Of a DNA stretch of 32,348 nucleotides, positions 18,227 through 24,879 are shown piece by piece. The stretch comes from Candidatus Gastranaerophilales bacterium (GTDB lineage Bacteria > Cyanobacteriota > Vampirovibrionia > Gastranaerophilales > Gastranaerophilaceae), in the NCBI GenBank assembly GCA_944326495.1, contig CALVEE010000069.1, positions 1 through 32,348 on the forward strand, written 5' to 3'. Position 1 is the stretch's first letter; every line of letters begins with the position of its first letter. The notes under the pieces were generated by a model that saw only the letters and a list, made by a program, of their open reading frames with translations, searched no databases and was not told the DNA's origin. The position numbers were made by a program, and so were the translations under genes.

Positions 18227-19167
18227 TGTTCAATAGAGTCCTGTTCAAAAAAAGAATACTTTTTGTCGGAATTCCTGATATGGCTTATATCGGGCTCGAC
18301 GGGCTTTTGATGGCAGGCGTTAATATTGTCGGGGTTATGGGGCCTAAAAAAGACCATAATATGTTTTATGATTTTAAGCAGTTTGTTCTTTCAAGAAGGC
18401 TTAATTATATAGATTACGATGAACTTGATGAGCCGCAGCTAATTGAAACAATACGTGCTCTGGATATAGATGCGGCTGTTGTCTGCTCGTTTAATTACAA
18501 AATCCCTAAAATCCTTTTGGAGTCAGTAAAAGACGGATTTATTAATGTCCATCCATCAATGCTTCCAAAATACAGGGGCGGAAATCCTTATTCAAGAGTT
18601 ATTATGAACGGCGAGACAGAGACCGGAGTTACAATTCATTTTATGGATGAAAGCTTTGATACAGGAGATATTATTGCACAGAAACCTTATCATATACATT
18701 CAAAAGCTACAATGGGAACTATTTTTAACGAACTGAATGTAATCGGGATTGAACTTTTGCTTCAGGTTCTGCAGGCATATGAAAATCAGCCTCTTCCGCG
18801 GATTAAACAGCCGGCAGGAGAGTTTGTGTCGGGAAAAGGGTTAAGCGAAAAAGAAGTTTTCATTAATTATAATAAAACCGCAGAAGAAATCGAACGGTTT
18901 GTGCGCGCCCTTAATCCGTTTATTCTTGCAAGTACAACATTCCGCGGAAATATGATGAAGATAATGAAAGTAGAGGTTGCATCAGACGCTTTTTGTATTC
19001 CTCATCCTGCCGGAACTGTAGCAAAAATTGAGGACGACAAGTTTTTTATTGCAACCTCAAAGGGGCTTGTTGTGCCGACAGTTATGCAATTCGGGAGCTT
19101 CTTTATGGGAGACAGCAAAGACTTTTTAAGAATAGTTAACCCCAAAATCGGCGAAGAATTCAAATAG
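18226..19167 (+). CDS. N10-formyl-THF-dependent formyltransferase, Fmt-like paralogue
   Basis: INVHPSMLPKYRGGNP, ETGVTIH, DTGDII, Fmt-type C-terminal domain. TAATG overlap with the upstream gene. Confidence 0.88.
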   Translation: MFNRVLFKKRILFVGIPDMAYIGLDGLLMAGVNIVGVMGPKKDHNMFYDFKQFVLSRRLNYIDYDELDEPQLIETIRALDIDAAVVCSFNYKIPKILLESVKDGFINVHPSMLPKYRGGNPYSRVIMNGETETGVTIHFMDESFDTGDIIAQKPYHIHSKATMGTIFNELNVIGIELLLQVLQAYENQPLPRIKQPAGEFVSGKGLSEKEVFINYNKTAEEIERFVRALNPFILASTTFRGNMMKIMKVEVASDAFCIPHPAGTVAKIEDDKFFIATSKGLVVPTVMQFGSFFMGDSKDFLRIVNPKIGEEFK

Positions 19168-19376
19168 GGGGGGGGTAAATATATGAAGTGTATTTATCGG
19201 GAGACATTAGATCAAGATGCCAGGTTGGATTTAAGATTACAGGTCTCCCTCAATGGTCAAACTACAGGAATGCAGGGGGGGGAAATGTATGAAGTGTGTT
19301 TGTCGGGAGACATTAGGTCAAGATGACAGGTTAGATTTAAGATTACAGGTCTCCCTCGATAGTCGAACTACAGGAA
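19167..19376 (+). repeat. Two tandem 106-bp units, each led by a poly-G tract
   Basis: 19177-19270 vs 19283-19376: 85/94 identical. Each contains GGGAGAC-N37-GTCTCCC. Confidence 0.95.
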
Positions 19377-19388
19377 AATAGGCAGGGG

Positions 19389-20219
19389 ATGAATAAAGAT
19401 ATGGATAAGTTGAATTTTTTAACAGCAGGGGTACCGCTAAGAGCGGGTAATAAAGGATATGGAGCCGGGTTTGAAATACTTAATGATATGGGCTTAGACG
19501 GGCTTGAGCTGGAATTTGTAAGAGGAGTCAGAATAAGCGATAAAAGCCGTGAAGCTGTCAGTAAGTCCGGAAAAGTTATTACTGCACATGCCCCTTTTTA
19601 TGTTAACTTAAATGCTCGTGAGCCGGAGAAAGTTGAAGCAAGCGCGCAGAGAATTATTGAGACTGCCATAACTGCAAACGAGCTTGGCGGATACAGTATA
19701 ACATTCCATGCAGCTTATTATCTCGATATGGATAAGGAGCTTGTTTTCAAACAGGTTGAGGCGCAAACAAGGTTGATAACAGAAGCGCTTGCAAAAGATA
19801 ATAATAAGATTTGGATAAGACCGGAGACAACCGGAAAAGGTACGCAATGGGGGGATTTGGAAGAGATTATAAGATTATCTAAAGAGTTTGAAACAGTTCT
19901 TCCCTGCGTTGATTTTTCCCATCTTCACGCAAGATATAATGGAATTTCTAATACTTATGATGAGTTTTGCGCAATCTTTGAAAAGATTGGAAACGAACTC
20001 GGGCAGAGAGCGTTAGAGAATTTTCACGCTCATATTGCCGGGATTGAGTACGGGGCTAAAGGCGAAAAGAAGCATTTGAACCTTGAAGAGTCTGACTTTA
20101 ATTACAAGGATTTATTGAAAGCGTTTAAAGCGTTCAGCGTAAAAGGTGCTGTTGTCTGCGAAAGTCCTAATATTGAAGATGACGCCAAACTACTTAAGGA
20201 TTACTATTTGAGTTTGTAA
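19389..20219 (+). CDS. nfo: Endonuclease IV-like TIM-barrel AP endonuclease
   Basis: HAPFYVNL, FHAAYY, RPETTGK, CVDFSHLHAR, HAH, KKHL, VCESP metal ligands. Start could be 19401. Confidence 0.85.
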   Translation: MNKDMDKLNFLTAGVPLRAGNKGYGAGFEILNDMGLDGLELEFVRGVRISDKSREAVSKSGKVITAHAPFYVNLNAREPEKVEASAQRIIETAITANELGGYSITFHAAYYLDMDKELVFKQVEAQTRLITEALAKDNNKIWIRPETTGKGTQWGDLEEIIRLSKEFETVLPCVDFSHLHARYNGISNTYDEFCAIFEKIGNELGQRALENFHAHIAGIEYGAKGEKKHLNLEESDFNYKDLLKAFKAFSVKGAVVCESPNIEDDAKLLKDYYLSL

Positions 20220-20265
20220 ATTATTTGTTATCATAAGTATTCCAATAAAAACAAAAAGAACGTTT

Positions 20266-20336
20266 TCCTCTCCCTACGGGAGAGGAGCAGCCGTGTTTGA
20301 GGCGGGAGCCGAAAACTACGGATGCGGTGAGGGGGC
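20266..20336 (+). repeat. BoxC-like repeat, type A insert
   Basis: Near-identical to 4949-5020. Apical loop GGGA. Confidence 0.92.
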
Positions 20337-20421
20337 AATGTTATCCCGCAAGGAAAAGTTAAAAACGGAAAGATATAAATTTGAAAACTTTATCTTCAAT
20401 ATTCCCCTAACGGGGCTGCCA

Positions 20422-20492
20422 CCTCACCAAGAATTTCTAATACTCAACTGACGTTTCGTATTGAAATTCTATCCTCTCCCGTAAGGCGAGGA
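20422..20492 (-). repeat. BoxC-like repeat, type B insert
   Basis: Minus strand TCCTCGCC-TTACG-GGAGAGGA, GAATTTC AATAC GA AAC GTCA GTT GA GTATT A GAAATTC, GGTGAGG. Confidence 0.88.
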
Positions 20493-20544
20493 AGTGTGCA
20501 AGCCTTGATTTATTTTAAGTGTTCCAATAACAAAAAGTACGCCT

Positions 20545-20614
20545 TCCTCTCCCTACGGGAGAGGAGCAGCCGTGTTTGAGGCCATGCCGAAAACTACGGA
20601 TGCGGTGAGGGGGC
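20545..20614 (+). repeat. BoxC-like repeat, type A insert
   Basis: Near-identical to 4949-5020. Apical loop CAT. The downstream AT-rich tail is also shared with 5021-5100. Confidence 0.92.
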
Positions 20615-20864
20615 AGTCAATACAGACAAATAAAAAATTATAAAATGAATTCTAAAAGAACAGTTTATTTAGATAATATAATTATAAGTTAATATTGGAC
20701 ATGTATGCTTAACCAACCACCGATTTACAATCTTGTTTTTACAGGACAGTTATACCACAACAGCGAAGGAAGGCTCTATGCTTAGCGCCGACTCCCTCCC
20801 TTTTGAGGCACTAGTGTCCAAGAAAAATTTTAGAGGTTCGCCCCCAGCCAAATATCAGTTAGAA

Positions 20865-20910
20865 CCCCTCCCCGAAATCAAAGATTTCGACCCTCCCACA
20901 GGGGGCGGGT
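20865..20910 (-). repeat. BoxC-like repeat with short hairpin insert
   Basis: Minus strand CCCGCCCC-CTGT-GGGAGGG, CGAAATC-TTT-GATTTCG, GGGAGGGG. Confidence 0.75.
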
Positions 20911-20934
20911 AGGCTCCACGCCTGGTGTGACGGC

Positions 20935-21007
20935 TCCCTCGCCCCTTGTGGGAGAGGGAAGAATTTCAAGTTGAGCTTTAGCGAAACTTTGAAATTCGGG
21001 TGAGGGG
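20935..21007 (+). repeat. BoxC-like repeat, type D insert
   Basis: TCCCTCGCCCCTTGTGGGAGAGGG, GAATTTC AAGTT GA GC TTTA GC GA AACTT T GAAATTC, GGGTGAGGGG. Second copy at 23169-23240 (-). Confidence 0.9.
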
Positions 21008-21080
21008 TCTTTTTTATGTCTTTACATTATATTATTTTATATAAGGGTTTCTCTTTTCAATTTTTCTTGGACACTAATGC

Positions 21081-21143
21081 GCCCTACGGGAGAGGATAGA
21101 ATTTCAAAAACAGAAGTTGAGTATTAGAAATTCTTAGTGAGGG
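21081..21143 (+). repeat. 5'-truncated, degenerate BoxC-like repeat, type B
   Basis: GCCCTACGGGAGAGGATAGAATTTC...GTTGAGTATTAGAAATTCTTAGTGAGGG. Lacks the first TCCT, where it abuts the MITE end. Confidence 0.8.
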
Positions 21144-21334
21144 TGCAGTAAGACATTAAGTTAACGAGATTTTTCAAGCTCACTAAATAATTATTTTCGT
21201 CCTTAGAATAACGATGAGTATGAGAAGTTTTGTCGTTTGGACATACTTGTACAACAATAACTTATAATTACATTATCCAAACAAACTGTCCTTGTAAAAC
21301 TTATTTTATAATTTTTATTCATACCTGCAAACTA

Positions 21335-21403
21335 CCCCCTCACCGCATTCGTAGTTTTCGGCACAGCCTCAAACACGGCTGCTCCTCTCCCGTAGGGCGA
21401 GGA
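21335..21403 (-). repeat. BoxC-like repeat, type A insert, about 30 nt downstream of the flagellin stop
   Basis: Reverse complement matches the type A copies. Apical loop TGT. Confidence 0.9.
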
Positions 21404-21435
21404 AATTTGCCTGAGATTTTGAAAGAAAAACATTT

Positions 21436-23142
21436 TTACAGCAGCTGCAACGCAATCGCTGGTGTCTGGTTGGCCGTCGCAAGCAGAGTAGCTGAAGCCT
21501 GTTGGAGGATTTGCATTTTTATATATTGGGAACTTTCTTCTGCGATATCTGCGTCGCGTATGGTTGAACGTGAAGAAACAAGATTATCATACTGGATTGA
21601 TATTTCATCAAGAACGCTCTCTAAACGATTTTGAACTGACCCTAGTTCGGTTTGTTTATTTGAGAGGCTCTCAAGTATTTCATCAAGAGTTGTTAAAAGG
21701 TTCGGATTTTCTATATCAGAAGAGAGTCCGCTGATGCTAAACGCTGTTGAAAAAGTTATCTGTGATGATGTATCAGAACCTATTCCCACCTGCAAGGTTA
21801 TATCATGGATTACATTAGAAATTTTAGCTATATTTAAAGTTATAACAGCACTACTATTATCAATATTGTACAATTCCATTTTAGGATTTATATCTTCATT
21901 ATATGTCACATTATTTATTGTTACATTGTTTATGTTGCCACCTATTACACCAAGGGCAGGGGTTATAGTATCTCCTTCTGGAGATGATACTAATGCTTCT
22001 GTATAACAATTTTCTATAATACAAGAGCCTGAACTATTTCCTATAATCCCACCTGCAAGAATACCTGTAACATCCCCCAAGACAAAACAATTAGAAATAA
22101 CTGTATTACCACCATTAACATGTCCTGCAATCCCACCACCTATAAAAGTGTTTGTAATATTTACATCCGTCCAACAATTATCTACGCTTGAATTATCACC
22201 CACCAAACTTCCAACTAGTCCACCTGTCCCTCCCAAATTTGCTATAGTTACGACTCCTGTAACCCAACAATTAGAAAATTTTGTGTTATTTGCAGTTACA
22301 GCAACTGGAGAATAAACACCTTTAGTGACACTTATATTTTCAAGGCCTAAATTTTTTATTTCTGAGTTTTCTAAAGTTCCAAATAAAGGATCATTTAGAT
22401 TTGATATTATATGTCCATTGCCATCTAATACAATGCTATCTGTAGTCTGCATAACAAGACCACTACCTCTATTAATTCGTATGCCTGACATATCAATATC
22501 TTGTGCTAATACAAATTCTCCTCCAGAAATTCTAGTAGAATTTTCAAGAAGTTTTTCTAGTTCTTCTGGCGATGAAATACTATAGATTCCTCCAGTAATT
22601 GATTGACTTAGATTAACATCCTTAAAAGCTGGCATTGTACTCGTATCTCTAGGATTAATTTCATTCATAAAACCTTTTTCATTTAAAACAACTTTTTTTC
22701 CATTTATAATAGGGCCTTGAATATTTTCACCAAAAAGTTTTATTCCGTTGTATTCCGCAGTTGCCATGAGGCGATTAATCTCTAATGTTATACCGTCTGC
22801 TTCTTGTCTGATAGCATCGATTGAGCTGCTACCATAGGTGCCGTTTTGAGCTTGCACGGTGAGAGCTCTCAAGCGGGAAATTCTGTCCGATATCTGCTCT
22901 AATGTGCCCGATGCTGTTGAGACCATATCTAGGCCCATTGAGGCATTATCTTCAGCTACCTGATATGCGCCGATTTTGGTTGACATGCTGGTAGAGATTG
23001 AATAGCCAGCTGCGTTGTCTTTGGCTCCGTTGATTTTAAAGCCCGTTGTCATGCGCTCGATAGCCTGGTTTAAGCCGAGGGTTGAGTTGAGGAGGTTGGA
23101 TTGGACGATTAAGGATGAGAGATTGGTGTTGATACTTAGCAT
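21436..23142 (-). CDS. fliC: Flagellin with a central GLUG/beta-helix-like insert
   Basis: N-term SINTN, ERMTTGFKINGAKDNAAG, AEYNGIKLF. C-term LQVG, LGSVQNRLE, STIRDADIAEE, ILQQASATLLATANQTP..ALQLL. RBS AAAGGAGG. Confidence 0.95.
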   Translation of the reverse strand: MLSINTNLSSLIVQSNLLNSTLGLNQAIERMTTGFKINGAKDNAAGYSISTSMSTKIGAYQVAEDNASMGLDMVSTASGTLEQISDRISRLRALTVQAQNGTYGSSSIDAIRQEADGITLEINRLMATAEYNGIKLFGENIQGPIINGKKVVLNEKGFMNEINPRDTSTMPAFKDVNLSQSITGGIYSISSPEELEKLLENSTRISGGEFVLAQDIDMSGIRINRGSGLVMQTTDSIVLDGNGHIISNLNDPLFGTLENSEIKNLGLENISVTKGVYSPVAVTANNTKFSNCWVTGVVTIANLGGTGGLVGSLVGDNSSVDNCWTDVNITNTFIGGGIAGHVNGGNTVISNCFVLGDVTGILAGGIIGNSSGSCIIENCYTEALVSSPEGDTITPALGVIGGNINNVTINNVTYNEDINPKMELYNIDNSSAVITLNIAKISNVIHDITLQVGIGSDTSSQITFSTAFSISGLSSDIENPNLLTTLDEILESLSNKQTELGSVQNRLESVLDEISIQYDNLVSSRSTIRDADIAEESSQYIKMQILQQASATLLATANQTPAIALQLL

Positions 23143-23147
23143 GTTGA

Positions 23148-23179
23148 CCTCCTTTGGGCAGGAGTTGACCCCTCTCCTG
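23148..23179 (-). promoter_or_regulatory. Flagellin SD with anti-SD hairpin and a competing upstream pairing partner
   Basis: mRNA reads CAGGAG-AGGGGUCAA-CUCCUG-CCCAA-AGGAGG-UCAAC-AUG. CUCCU can pair with the SD or with the upstream CAGGAG. Confidence 0.55.
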
Positions 23180-23240
23180 AATTTCTAAGTTTCACGGAGC
23201 TCAACTTGAAATTCTGCCCTCTCCCGCAAGGGGCGAGGGA
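23169..23240 (-). repeat. BoxC-like repeat, type D insert, in the flagellin 5' region
   Basis: Homologous to 20935-21007. Confidence 0.9.
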
Positions 23241-23322
23241 ATAGGCTTGTAATTGGCGGGAAAGTGTGCCCCGTTCCGATCTTCCATCATTTGAGAGGAA
23301 GCCGGCGCTAAGCGTAGAGCGT

Positions 23323-23354
23323 TCCTTCCCTAATGAGGGAAGGTTAGGATGGGT
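23323..23354 (+). repeat. Minimal BoxC-like repeat
   Basis: CCTTCCC-TAATGA-GGGAAGG-TTA-GGATGGG. Confidence 0.75.
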
Positions 23355-23414
23355 GACTGCCCGAAAGGGGAGTGTATTAAAGTCGATAGCTTTAACTGGG
23401 GCAAGATTTGTTAG

Positions 23415-23450
23415 CACCCACCCCAGCCCTCCCTCATTAGGGAGGGAGGC
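23415..23450 (-). repeat. Minimal BoxC-like repeat
   Basis: Minus strand CCTCCCTCCC-TAATGA-GGGAGGG-CTG-GGGTGGG. Similar to 5201-5235. Confidence 0.75.
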
Positions 23451-23499
23451 GGCGTGTTTTAACGCAGAAAATTTTGAGAATAAAATAGCTCTAAAATAA

Positions 23500-23604
23500 C
23501 TACAAAAGCAAGCTTCTAGACTTGCCCCCCCCCCCGAAAAGCATGACTACAAGCGGGTTTGAGGCAATATACATTTTCTGCTCTGCTTCTTTTGAATACA
23601 ACAT
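23500..23604 (-). CDS. Putative flagellin leader peptide containing a G11 slippage tract (34 aa as assembled; 155 aa ending at 23136 with G10)
   Basis: Translated by hand: MLYSKEAEQKMYIASNPLVVMLFGGGGKSRSLLL*. Preceded by AAAGGA and a TATAAT -10. C11 at 23525-23535 on the plus strand. Confidence 0.6.
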   Translation of the reverse strand: MLYSKEAEQKMYIASNPLVVMLFGGGGKSRSLLL

Positions 23605-23625
23605 ACCTAATCAGTTCCTTTGATT

Positions 23626-23654
23626 ATTATACTTTATTAATTCCACATTCTCAT
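23626..23654 (-). promoter_or_regulatory. Sigma70-type promoter for the leader-flagellin transcript
   Basis: Minus strand ATGAGA-N17-TATAAT. Confidence 0.5.
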
Positions 23655-23721
23655 AATTAGTAACGCTTTTTATATAGAATTTTTACAAAAATTAACATTA
23701 TAATATTGATTAATTCTAAAC

Positions 23722-23750
23722 TTGACATAACTAGTATTTATAACGACAAT
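23722..23750 (+). promoter_or_regulatory. Sigma70-type promoter for gcvT
   Basis: TTGACA-N17-GACAAT, then RBS GGGGAG. Confidence 0.6.
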
Positions 23751-23775
23751 AAAATAAGAAACTAGGGGAGTATAT

Positions 23776-24879
23776 ATGACAAAGCAGACTTTTTTACATG
23801 ATAAACATGTTGCACTCGGTGCGCGTATGGTAGATTTTGCCGGCTGGGAGATGCCTGTGCAGTATTCATCAATTATAGATGAACATAAAACAGTGAGAGA
23901 AACAGCCGGGATCTTTGATGTGTCACATATGGGAGAAATTATTGTATATGGTGAAGACGCTCTTCCGTTTTTGAATAAACTTGTTCCGCAGGATATTACA
24001 AAACTCGTTGATTTAAAGGCTGTATATTGCCAGCTTACAAATAAGAATGGCGGAATAATTGACGATTTAATAATCTACAAACTTGAAGATAAAAAATATT
24101 TAATAATAGCGAACGCTTCACGCATAGACGAGGACTTAAACTGGATGGTCAGAAATAAATGCGGTTTTGATGTTACAATTGTAAACGAGTCGCATAATTA
24201 TTCGCTTCTGGCAGTTCAGGGGCCAAAAGCATGTGAACTTATAAAATCGCTCGGTATCGAAAATTTACCTTCATTTTTCCATATCAAAAGAGGGGAACTT
24301 TTTAACATAAATGTTTGGATTTCAAGAACCGGTTATACAGGAGAGGACGGAGTCGAAATTCTTGTACGTAATGAGTTTTCAGAATACCTCTGGGATAAAT
24401 TATTATCTACGGGAAAACCTTTTGGGATAAAGCCTATCGGACTTGGTGCAAGGGACACTTTAAGGCTTGAAGCAGGACTGCATCTATACGGTAATGATTT
24501 GGATGAAAATACAACCCCGATTGAAGCAGGATTATCCTGGTCTGTATCAAAAAATAAAACAGAAGATTACAACGGAAAGTCCGCTATTGATAAACAGCTT
24601 AAAGAAGGAATTACAAAAAAACTAATCGGATTTAAAATGCTGGATAAATCAATTGCAAGGCATGGCTATGAAATATATTCTGCTGGCGAACAGGTCGGAA
24701 TTGTAACCAGCGGCGGGGTTTCACCAATAAGAGGCGAAAATATAGGTATGGGTTATATAAAAAACCTTGACAATTTAGCTGTAGGCTCTACAATTCAAAT
24801 ATTGATACGTGAAAAACTTCACGATGCCGAAATAGTTAAACGACCATTTGTTGAAAAAAAGAACAAAACTAATATATAG
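23776..24879 (+). CDS. gcvT: Glycine cleavage aminomethyltransferase T
   Basis: FAGWEMPVQY, FDVSHMG, SRTGYTGEDG, GLGARDTLRLEAG. Confidence 0.98.
   Translation: MTKQTFLHDKHVALGARMVDFAGWEMPVQYSSIIDEHKTVRETAGIFDVSHMGEIIVYGEDALPFLNKLVPQDITKLVDLKAVYCQLTNKNGGIIDDLIIYKLEDKKYLIIANASRIDEDLNWMVRNKCGFDVTIVNESHNYSLLAVQGPKACELIKSLGIENLPSFFHIKRGELFNINVWISRTGYTGEDGVEILVRNEFSEYLWDKLLSTGKPFGIKPIGLGARDTLRLEAGLHLYGNDLDENTTPIEAGLSWSVSKNKTEDYNGKSAIDKQLKEGITKKLIGFKMLDKSIARHGYEIYSAGEQVGIVTSGGVSPIRGENIGMGYIKNLDNLAVGSTIQILIREKLHDAEIVKRPFVEKKNKTNI

Follow-up and report, generated by a model that had tools for sequence, protein, structure and literature searches.

Can a tract of guanines that lies outside a flagellin gene decide whether this gene is expressed? 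This question is raised by a locus in a 32,348-nt stretch of DNA from a Candidatus Gastranaerophilales bacterium (assembly GCA_944326495.1, contig CALVEE010000069.1), which we refer to as the window. Here, a gene for a large accessory flagellin (21436..23142, minus strand) is preceded by a leader open reading frame (ORF) that contains a run of eleven guanines. We consider it quite probable that this tract, the length of which varies between samples, switches the flagellin through the frame of the leader and translational coupling. Judged from sequence comparisons, the layout appears to be real and selected, and a coupling-based phase-variation switch is its most likely interpretation.

The leader frame at the window locus

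The leader is encoded by the minus strand, like the flagellin gene itself. A predicted sigma70-like promoter (ATGAGA-17-TATAAT, 23626..23654, 10/12 match, with TATAAT at 23631-23626) is followed by a Shine-Dalgarno-like AAGGA (23620-23616) and the leader ATG (23604-23602), and this start region (23602..23620) has a like layout in relatives. The proposed switch, the G11 tract, occupies positions 23525..23535. With G11, as assembled, the leader ends after 34 aa at a TAG (23502-23500) that also closes the G8 frame and is in phase with the flagellin gene, while with G12 it ends after 29 aa at another TAG (23518-23516), shared with G9. With G10 or G13, it extends to 155 or 156 aa, respectively. This ON form (23136..23604 at G10) remains open for 128 codons past the tract and ends at a TAA (23138-23136) inside flagellin codons 2-3, at +4 from the flagellin ATG at 23142, such that stop and start overlap in ATGCTAA. 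Since the flagellin-phase frame meets its stop 22 nt past the tract, no tract length yields a leader-flagellin fusion. The locus therefore presents a promoter-like site, a leader start, a tract, two early stops and one frame that is open to the flagellin start. Shuffling the 382 nt of the locus 300 times never produced a frame open to the flagellin start.

A preliminary description made from the sequence alone had placed the TATAAT, the leader ATG, the tract and the ATGCTAA overlap at exactly these positions. Translation of the frames also agrees with the leader lengths that it gave for each tract size, with its view that the G10 product is never fused to flagellin, and with its assignment of the assembled allele as OFF. 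It had further called the G10 product largely repeat-derived. The ON frame does cross three dispersed palindromic repeat blocks (23171..23455, at about 23171-23240, 23306-23380 and 23411-23455, not assigned to a strand), each with about 24-73 BLAST matches within the genome, but their cover is roughly half and the word 'largely' was slightly generous. The last 93 aa of the ON product had no match in Pfam.

Recurrence of the layout and length variation of the tract

The genome from which the window originates (assembly of 1.74 Mb, 82% complete) contains nine G or C runs of at least 10 nt, where 0.11 would be expected. Four of these nine lie in leaders of flagellin-like genes (contigs C69, C93, C104 and C195), and a fifth, at the end of contig C14, belongs to a leader that is almost the same as one of those four. 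Each of the four has a single post-tract frame that terminates at the flagellin start, at +1 to +11 of the ATG; judged from the leader ATG, the copy on C93 is ON, whereas those on C69, C104 and C195 are OFF. No tract was found at the short canonical flagellins on contigs C99, C3 and C155. A near copy of the window leader on contig C103, which differs by two larger indels of 15 and 105 nt, has an interrupted tract of ten bases, GGGAGAGGGG, and an open leader of 195 aa, and it looks like a locked-ON allele. The paralogue on C9 looks decayed. Other G8-10 runs of this genome have no coupled gene.

The preliminary description had considered that the layout might recur at flagellin paralogues, and beyond these four loci it does so across the genus. 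We gathered 309 loci, which gave 263 flagellin starts after the removal of duplicates. A few same-record duplicates remain (e.g. L033/L062/L089), and clusters, defined at 95% identity, are therefore better counted than loci. Selection was by similarity to the window flagellin or to that on C104, and the loci are thus not a random draw. As controls served canonical flagellins, namely 23 short flagellins that form one clade of the tree (support 1.0) and 16 further short ones chosen by locus. Within 900 nt upstream, G runs of at least 9 were found at 102 of the 174 accessory loci, or 68 of 133 clusters, as compared to 0 of 37 control loci, and by a hand count they occur in at least 25 species-representative genomes. 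The tract is made of G on the sense strand in 124 loci, whereas C runs of at least 8 occur in 2 accessory loci; the placement on the leading strand, as deduced from the GC skew of the flanks, was uninformative (33/65).

A frame was regarded as coupled if it first stops, past the tract, within -8..+12 of the flagellin ATG, a range that was fixed after the data had been seen. By this measure 73 of the 76 tract clusters are coupled, where 26.3, 25.4 and 12.2 are expected from shuffles, real genes and canonical flagellins, respectively. The excess is particularly clear for tracts at least 150 nt from the start (20/23, versus 0.4, 3.3 and 0.0 under the same three nulls), and species-representative genomes alone gave 53 of 56. 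The coupled stops of the 73 clusters span -7..+11 of the ATG, and 68 of 77 coupled frames stop at +1 to +11. Scattered stops in the long frame of orthologous leaders, which would have contradicted the preliminary description, are hence not the rule. An in-frame stop before the ATG blocks fusion with flagellin in all 76 clusters. Long flagellins of other families (7 loci in 4 genomes) have neither a G/C run of at least 7 nor the cassette.

Among tract-less accessory clusters, 44 of 65 have an ATG/GTG leader of at least 40 codons that ends at the flagellin start (3.0 expected), whereas none of 29 canonical flagellins has such a leader. This indicates that the leader, and not only the tract, is under selection. 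The leader peptide, by contrast, does not seem to be selected, because C69 and C93 use different frames of homologous leader DNA. We therefore regard the peptide itself as likely irrelevant. Consistent with this, we rejected the idea of a functional leader protein, the frame varying among paralogues and the length varying many-fold. The early OFF stops were likewise rejected as a designed feature, their frequency not being distinctive (69/76, 60 expected).

Several leaders show peculiarities of their own. The leader of L144 is one open frame with both a G8 and a C12 run, possibly a double switch. Compact leaders of the L142/L040/L162 type have ATG-GAT-ATG about 6 nt after TATATT, which suggests a leaderless start of the leader ORF. 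The paralogues L003 and L033 of genome G009 have the tract and the stops at the same places along a leader of 480 nt, which suggests recent duplication or gene conversion. Lastly, accessory flagellin starts have less than 130 nt of upstream DNA in 23 of 224 cases, compared to 1 of 39 canonical ones. Assemblies thus tend to break at accessory leaders, and the family is undercounted.

Tract lengths range from 9 to 16 with a mode of 11 (G11 in 69 of 124 loci). When 64 tract loci from metagenome assemblies were compared, 19 pairs were at least 99% identical outside the tract, and tract length differed in 6 of these. In three pairs from gut assemblies, the G count is the sole difference over 997-1043 nt (L250/L251, G11/G10; L305/L309, G11/G10; L298/L299, G11/G12). 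The length variation postulated in the preliminary description is therefore present in relatives. In Campylobacter jejuni, according to the available part of the report, G8-G11 tracts slip fast and G11 mutates mainly by deletion (PMC3401435). When the most upstream ATG was taken as the leader start, 23 of 103 assignable loci were ON and 80 OFF, 6 more having no ATG. In genome G006, 9 of 10 tract loci are OFF.

Such a predominance of OFF alleles could also reflect transcriptional slippage or ribosomal frameshifting at the tract. A fixed small share of ribosomes would then enter the coupled frame, and the tract would act as a dimmer in every cell. The fact that the commonest length, G11, is one base from ON would agree with this, as would a weak hairpin before the tract in 53 of 76 clusters (median z -0.4). 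However, genomic length varies among otherwise identical assemblies, with clean ON alleles included, and OFF clusters lie on both sides, with one G too many in 30 and one too few in 16, such that one recoding direction would not serve. We therefore judge a dimmer to be distinctly unlikely.

The flagellin ribosome-binding site and competing controls

Why coupling would be needed is explained by a predicted hairpin over the flagellin Shine-Dalgarno sequence. At the window locus this sequence, GGAGG (23148..23152, minus strand), is predicted to be paired, its bases having probabilities of 0.00-0.10 of being unpaired. The predicted anti-Shine-Dalgarno elements (23113..23164, minus strand) are CTCCT upstream (23164-23160) and codons 6-10 downstream (23127-23113). 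The median predicted cost of opening the ribosome-binding site was 11.6 kcal/mol for tract and 10.8 kcal/mol for tract-less accessory genes, versus 4.5 kcal/mol for canonical flagellins and 4.8 kcal/mol for 250 other genes. Five folded long flagellins from other families also had open sites (1.8-6.0 kcal/mol). In 54 of 73 clusters the predicted pairing partner is downstream of the Shine-Dalgarno sequence, at +21 to +28. According to these foldings, the pairing would mostly involve flagellin codons 7-9, and free ribosomes would for this reason not load. In 61 of 76 accessory genes, versus 11 of 38 canonical ones, the predicted lock is weaker when the real codons are replaced by synonymous ones, and the Leu of a T-N-L motif is encoded by the rare codon CTC in 58 of 134 accessory genes, versus 7% genome-wide. 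The hairpin is thus predicted to be partly made from rare synonymous codons. The leader stop falls in or beside its loop.

We propose that the tract changes by replication slippage, probably at a high and reversible rate. In ON alleles, ribosomes translating the leader would melt the hairpin, stop in or next to its loop, and reinitiate or admit a second ribosome. In OFF alleles, they would leave the RNA between 12 and several hundred bases too early. As many as about ten paralogues, the surface domains of which diverge, could then switch independently of each other and produce a mixed population, and interruption of a tract in the ON frame would give a locked-ON copy. With less confidence, though still leaning towards it, we suggest that this amounts to a genus-wide flagellar antigenic variation without recombinases or Rho, in which a hairpin in the first codons silences up to about ten accessory flagellins with divergent beta-helix surface domains, only ribosomes from a dispensable poly-G leader unlock them, point changes in the tract lock them ON, and repeats are tolerated as long as the frame is kept.

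Several observations weigh against such a switch. Three of the 76 tract clusters are uncoupled: in one, a nonsense codon interrupts an open frame of 880 nt, another has a frameshift, and the third is an orphan leader, the downstream gene having its own tract-less leader. Where the tract lies about 40 nt from the start, chance alone would often yield a coupled frame (p 0.4-0.9). The clusters are kin and paralogues and are not independent, so the counts are no formal probabilities. Leader starts were set by rule; a strict Shine-Dalgarno rule missed 43 of 110 loci, and under a looser rule 5 of 64 clusters were left without an ON length. MutS and MutL were found, and slippage rates would therefore be lower; C. 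jejuni is not known to possess mismatch repair. The lock at the window locus is moderate (5.4-8.8 kcal/mol) and under the family median. Moreover, shuffling of the 60 nt upstream left the lock unweakened (37/68), which rules out an upstream anti-Shine-Dalgarno sequence as a general lock. The contigs of seven public sequencing runs are a hint only of mixed tract lengths at this locus. None spans it, and contigs end at or in the tract, which paralogue C103 can also cause. In run X2 a single span is covered by two contigs of 112 and 111 nt, one of which lacks a G of the other but also has 3 more mismatches, and in run X6 a G13 copy has 11 mismatches.

To the same set belong several G13/G16 alleles that look like miscalled flanking bases and were not relied on. 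They could be taken, together with the G8-10 runs elsewhere in the genome that lack a coupled gene, to indicate that the tracts are sequencing or assembly artefacts, or neutral runs of G within intergenic DNA that is rich in repeats. In view of the position-specific recurrence in at least 25 genomes, the restriction to one class of flagellins and the frame statistics, this is hardly credible.

Lastly, terminator-like sites follow the tract in 22 of 76 clusters where 9.7 are expected, an about two-fold enrichment. One of them, a hairpin with a T run over the tract end (23504..23529, minus strand), is found at the window locus. These sites bear on attenuation of the pil1 type (discussed below), where leader ribosomes disrupt an intrinsic terminator and the control is on transcription or RNA stability, with coupling being secondary. 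Such a mechanism is Rho-independent and would thus fit this Rho-less lineage. However, 54 of 76 clusters have no such site, and the sites are too few for general attenuation, though they may contribute. A terminator between the OFF stops and the gene is thus not a general feature, and at the window locus the hairpin overlaps the OFF stops, both of which lie in or just after it, where the pil1 model, as set out in the available text, would give read-through (PMC3894217). Attenuation also leaves unexplained why the ON stop is kept at -7..+11 across leaders of 35-640 nt and why the Shine-Dalgarno sequence is hidden. We therefore regard attenuation as an unlikely explanation.

The preliminary description had supposed that tract length decides between reinitiation and polarity. 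The coupled-stop part of this view agrees with the frame data, but the Rho-dependent part does not hold. In the window OFF allele a 360-nt stretch would be left untranslated, as polarity after premature leader stops would require, while many other leaders leave less than 45 nt untranslated. Furthermore, the Rho RNA-binding domain was absent from all 98 genus genomes (of which 68 are at least 90% complete; controls were positive in 9 of 14), the best score against TIGR00767 being 60 bits versus a cut-off of 509. The missing Rho makes polarity unlikely and leaves translational coupling; we rate Rho-dependent polarity, which would call for some novel factor similar to Rho, as highly improbable.

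Homopolymers can also act as promoter spacers, as in porA- and tpr-type genes, and the open frames would then be by-products of a tract between -35 and -10. In one subfamily, CTTACA-17 nt-TAAAAC does span the G11 tract. However, a -10-like hexamer right after the tract was found in only 9 of 75 clusters, and together with a -35 across the tract in 3 of 75. The clear -10 precedes the leader start by about 25-30 nt, promoter sites predicted on the minus strand of the window locus lie only upstream of the tract, and the long open frames would remain unexplained. A spacer function is thus very unlikely. A sigma28 motif downstream of the tract was found in 0 of 75 clusters, but the pattern used also matched just 1 of 29 canonical flagellins.

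Further upstream, a block with a TGTAA repeat, GTTAC and TGTGGAA (23640..23699, minus strand) is common to accessory flagellin leaders. TGTGG(A/C)A occurs in 49 of 75 tract, 46 of 65 tract-less and 6 of 29 canonical clusters. In the window's own genome, the TGTAA direct repeat, GTTAY and TGTGG(A/C)A block is also present on contigs C93, C103, C62 and C187. It precedes two non-flagellin genes as well and looks like a response-regulator box, which may resemble the cyanobacterial HLR1. CsrA was present in 6 of 6 genomes tested (e.g. G000:C96:17621-17776), and the A(A/T)GGATATG conserved at the leader start could presumably also be a CsrA site.

The accessory flagellins and related systems

The 568-aa window flagellin has Flagellin_N, a GLUG/M26_N-like beta-helix insert, and Flagellin_C. 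Both terminal helical domains, PF00669 and PF00700, scored above the Pfam cut-off. The insert is modelled as a beta-rich domain (pLDDT 75), the best Foldseek matches of which were a Bacteroides putative IgA1 protease domain and IgA1 protease structures, followed by flagellar filaments. The HExxH zinc motif of protease flagellins of the M26 or flagellinolysin type is absent from all of 99 complete accessory flagellins. Named relatives belong to Gastranaerophilales/Melainabacteria, and the sequencing runs that best match the locus are chicken-gut metagenomes. FlhA-family, FliD, FliA and CsrA genes were found. FHIPEP/FlhA-family genes are present in all 98 genus genomes, typically in the form of two paralogues that are full-length, at about 700 aa. 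Several open frames of 1149-4640 aa per genome encode giant flagellar cap (FliD_C) proteins (G000:C13:18233, C209 and C59; G006:C22; G104:C2).

Elsewhere in the window, about 1.2 kb on the 3' side of the flagellin gene (20220-21435) is crammed with the same dispersed palindromic repeats as the leader. At 19167-19388, between formyltransferase-like and AP-endonuclease genes, two tandem copies of about 108 nt open with G9 and G8, and no coupled frame was found there. An Rfam scan of 20100-23900 gave 4 weak matches, none of which came close to the gathering score.

Statements on published systems refer to the available portions of the cited texts. The closest one is the leader-peptide phase variation of Streptococcus gallolyticus pil1. 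At pil1 and pil3 (Danne et al. 2014, PMC3894217), as at the window locus if the leader is translated, a simple repeat inside an upstream leader ORF shifts the leader stop, and a surface filament is gated without alteration of its sequence. The pil1/pil3 system, however, employs GCAGA repeats, an intrinsic terminator and transcription attenuation at two loci (PMC3894217), whereas the present loci, which can number up to about ten in a genome, have a G homopolymer, a stop at the start codon of the gene and a predicted hairpin over the Shine-Dalgarno sequence, but lack a conserved terminator. The poly-G contingency loci of Bifidobacterium breve pili (Penno et al. 2022, PMC9187656) and those of C. 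jejuni (Bayliss et al. 2012, PMC3401435) share with the present loci G9-G13 tracts, ON/OFF switching by one-base slippage, and a function in surface structures of gut bacteria. Their tracts are intragenic and ON means an intact fusion. In our 76 clusters, by contrast, a stop always prevents fusion, and no length joins leader and gene, as one length does in switches of the pilC/bifidobacterial pilus type. As in contingency loci, a slip-prone homopolymer is over-represented at surface genes.

Flagellar phase variation is also known from DNA inversion, as in Salmonella (Hin, fljB/fliC) and at the flg switch of C. difficile. These systems likewise choose stochastically which flagellin is displayed, but they are recombinase-driven and have one or two states, whereas the present loci are many, independent and without a recombinase. 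With translational coupling by unfolding and reinitiation (PMC12548453), our loci share a conserved stop near a downstream start and a ribosome-binding site that is predicted to be silenced by structure. Known coupling links fixed genes or answers signals (PMC12548453), whereas here the upstream ORF seems to be only the carrier of a mutable tract. The available text of this review makes no mention of phase variation or slippage, and phase variation and coupling are handled as separate classes in the available text of PMC3711429. Full-text searches of the open literature brought up no paper on a homopolymer leader coupled to a downstream start, and none on phase variation in the Gastranaerophilales lineage. 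Flagella of Melainabacteria are mentioned, and phase variation is not, in the available parts of PMC7018530 and PMC3787301.

If our interpretation is correct, slippage read out by translational coupling would be a third route of repeat-driven phase variation, besides intragenic frameshifts and effects on promoters or terminators. Annotation would miss such switches, as it would see an intact gene and an apparently intergenic tract, and ON/OFF states in metagenomes could be read only once the leader frame is known. Gastranaerophilales are common commensals of the gut that are uncultured; their flagellins, according to the available text of PMC3787301, have been predicted to be seen by TLR5. The switch proposed here would offer access to the ways in which these bacteria vary their surface.

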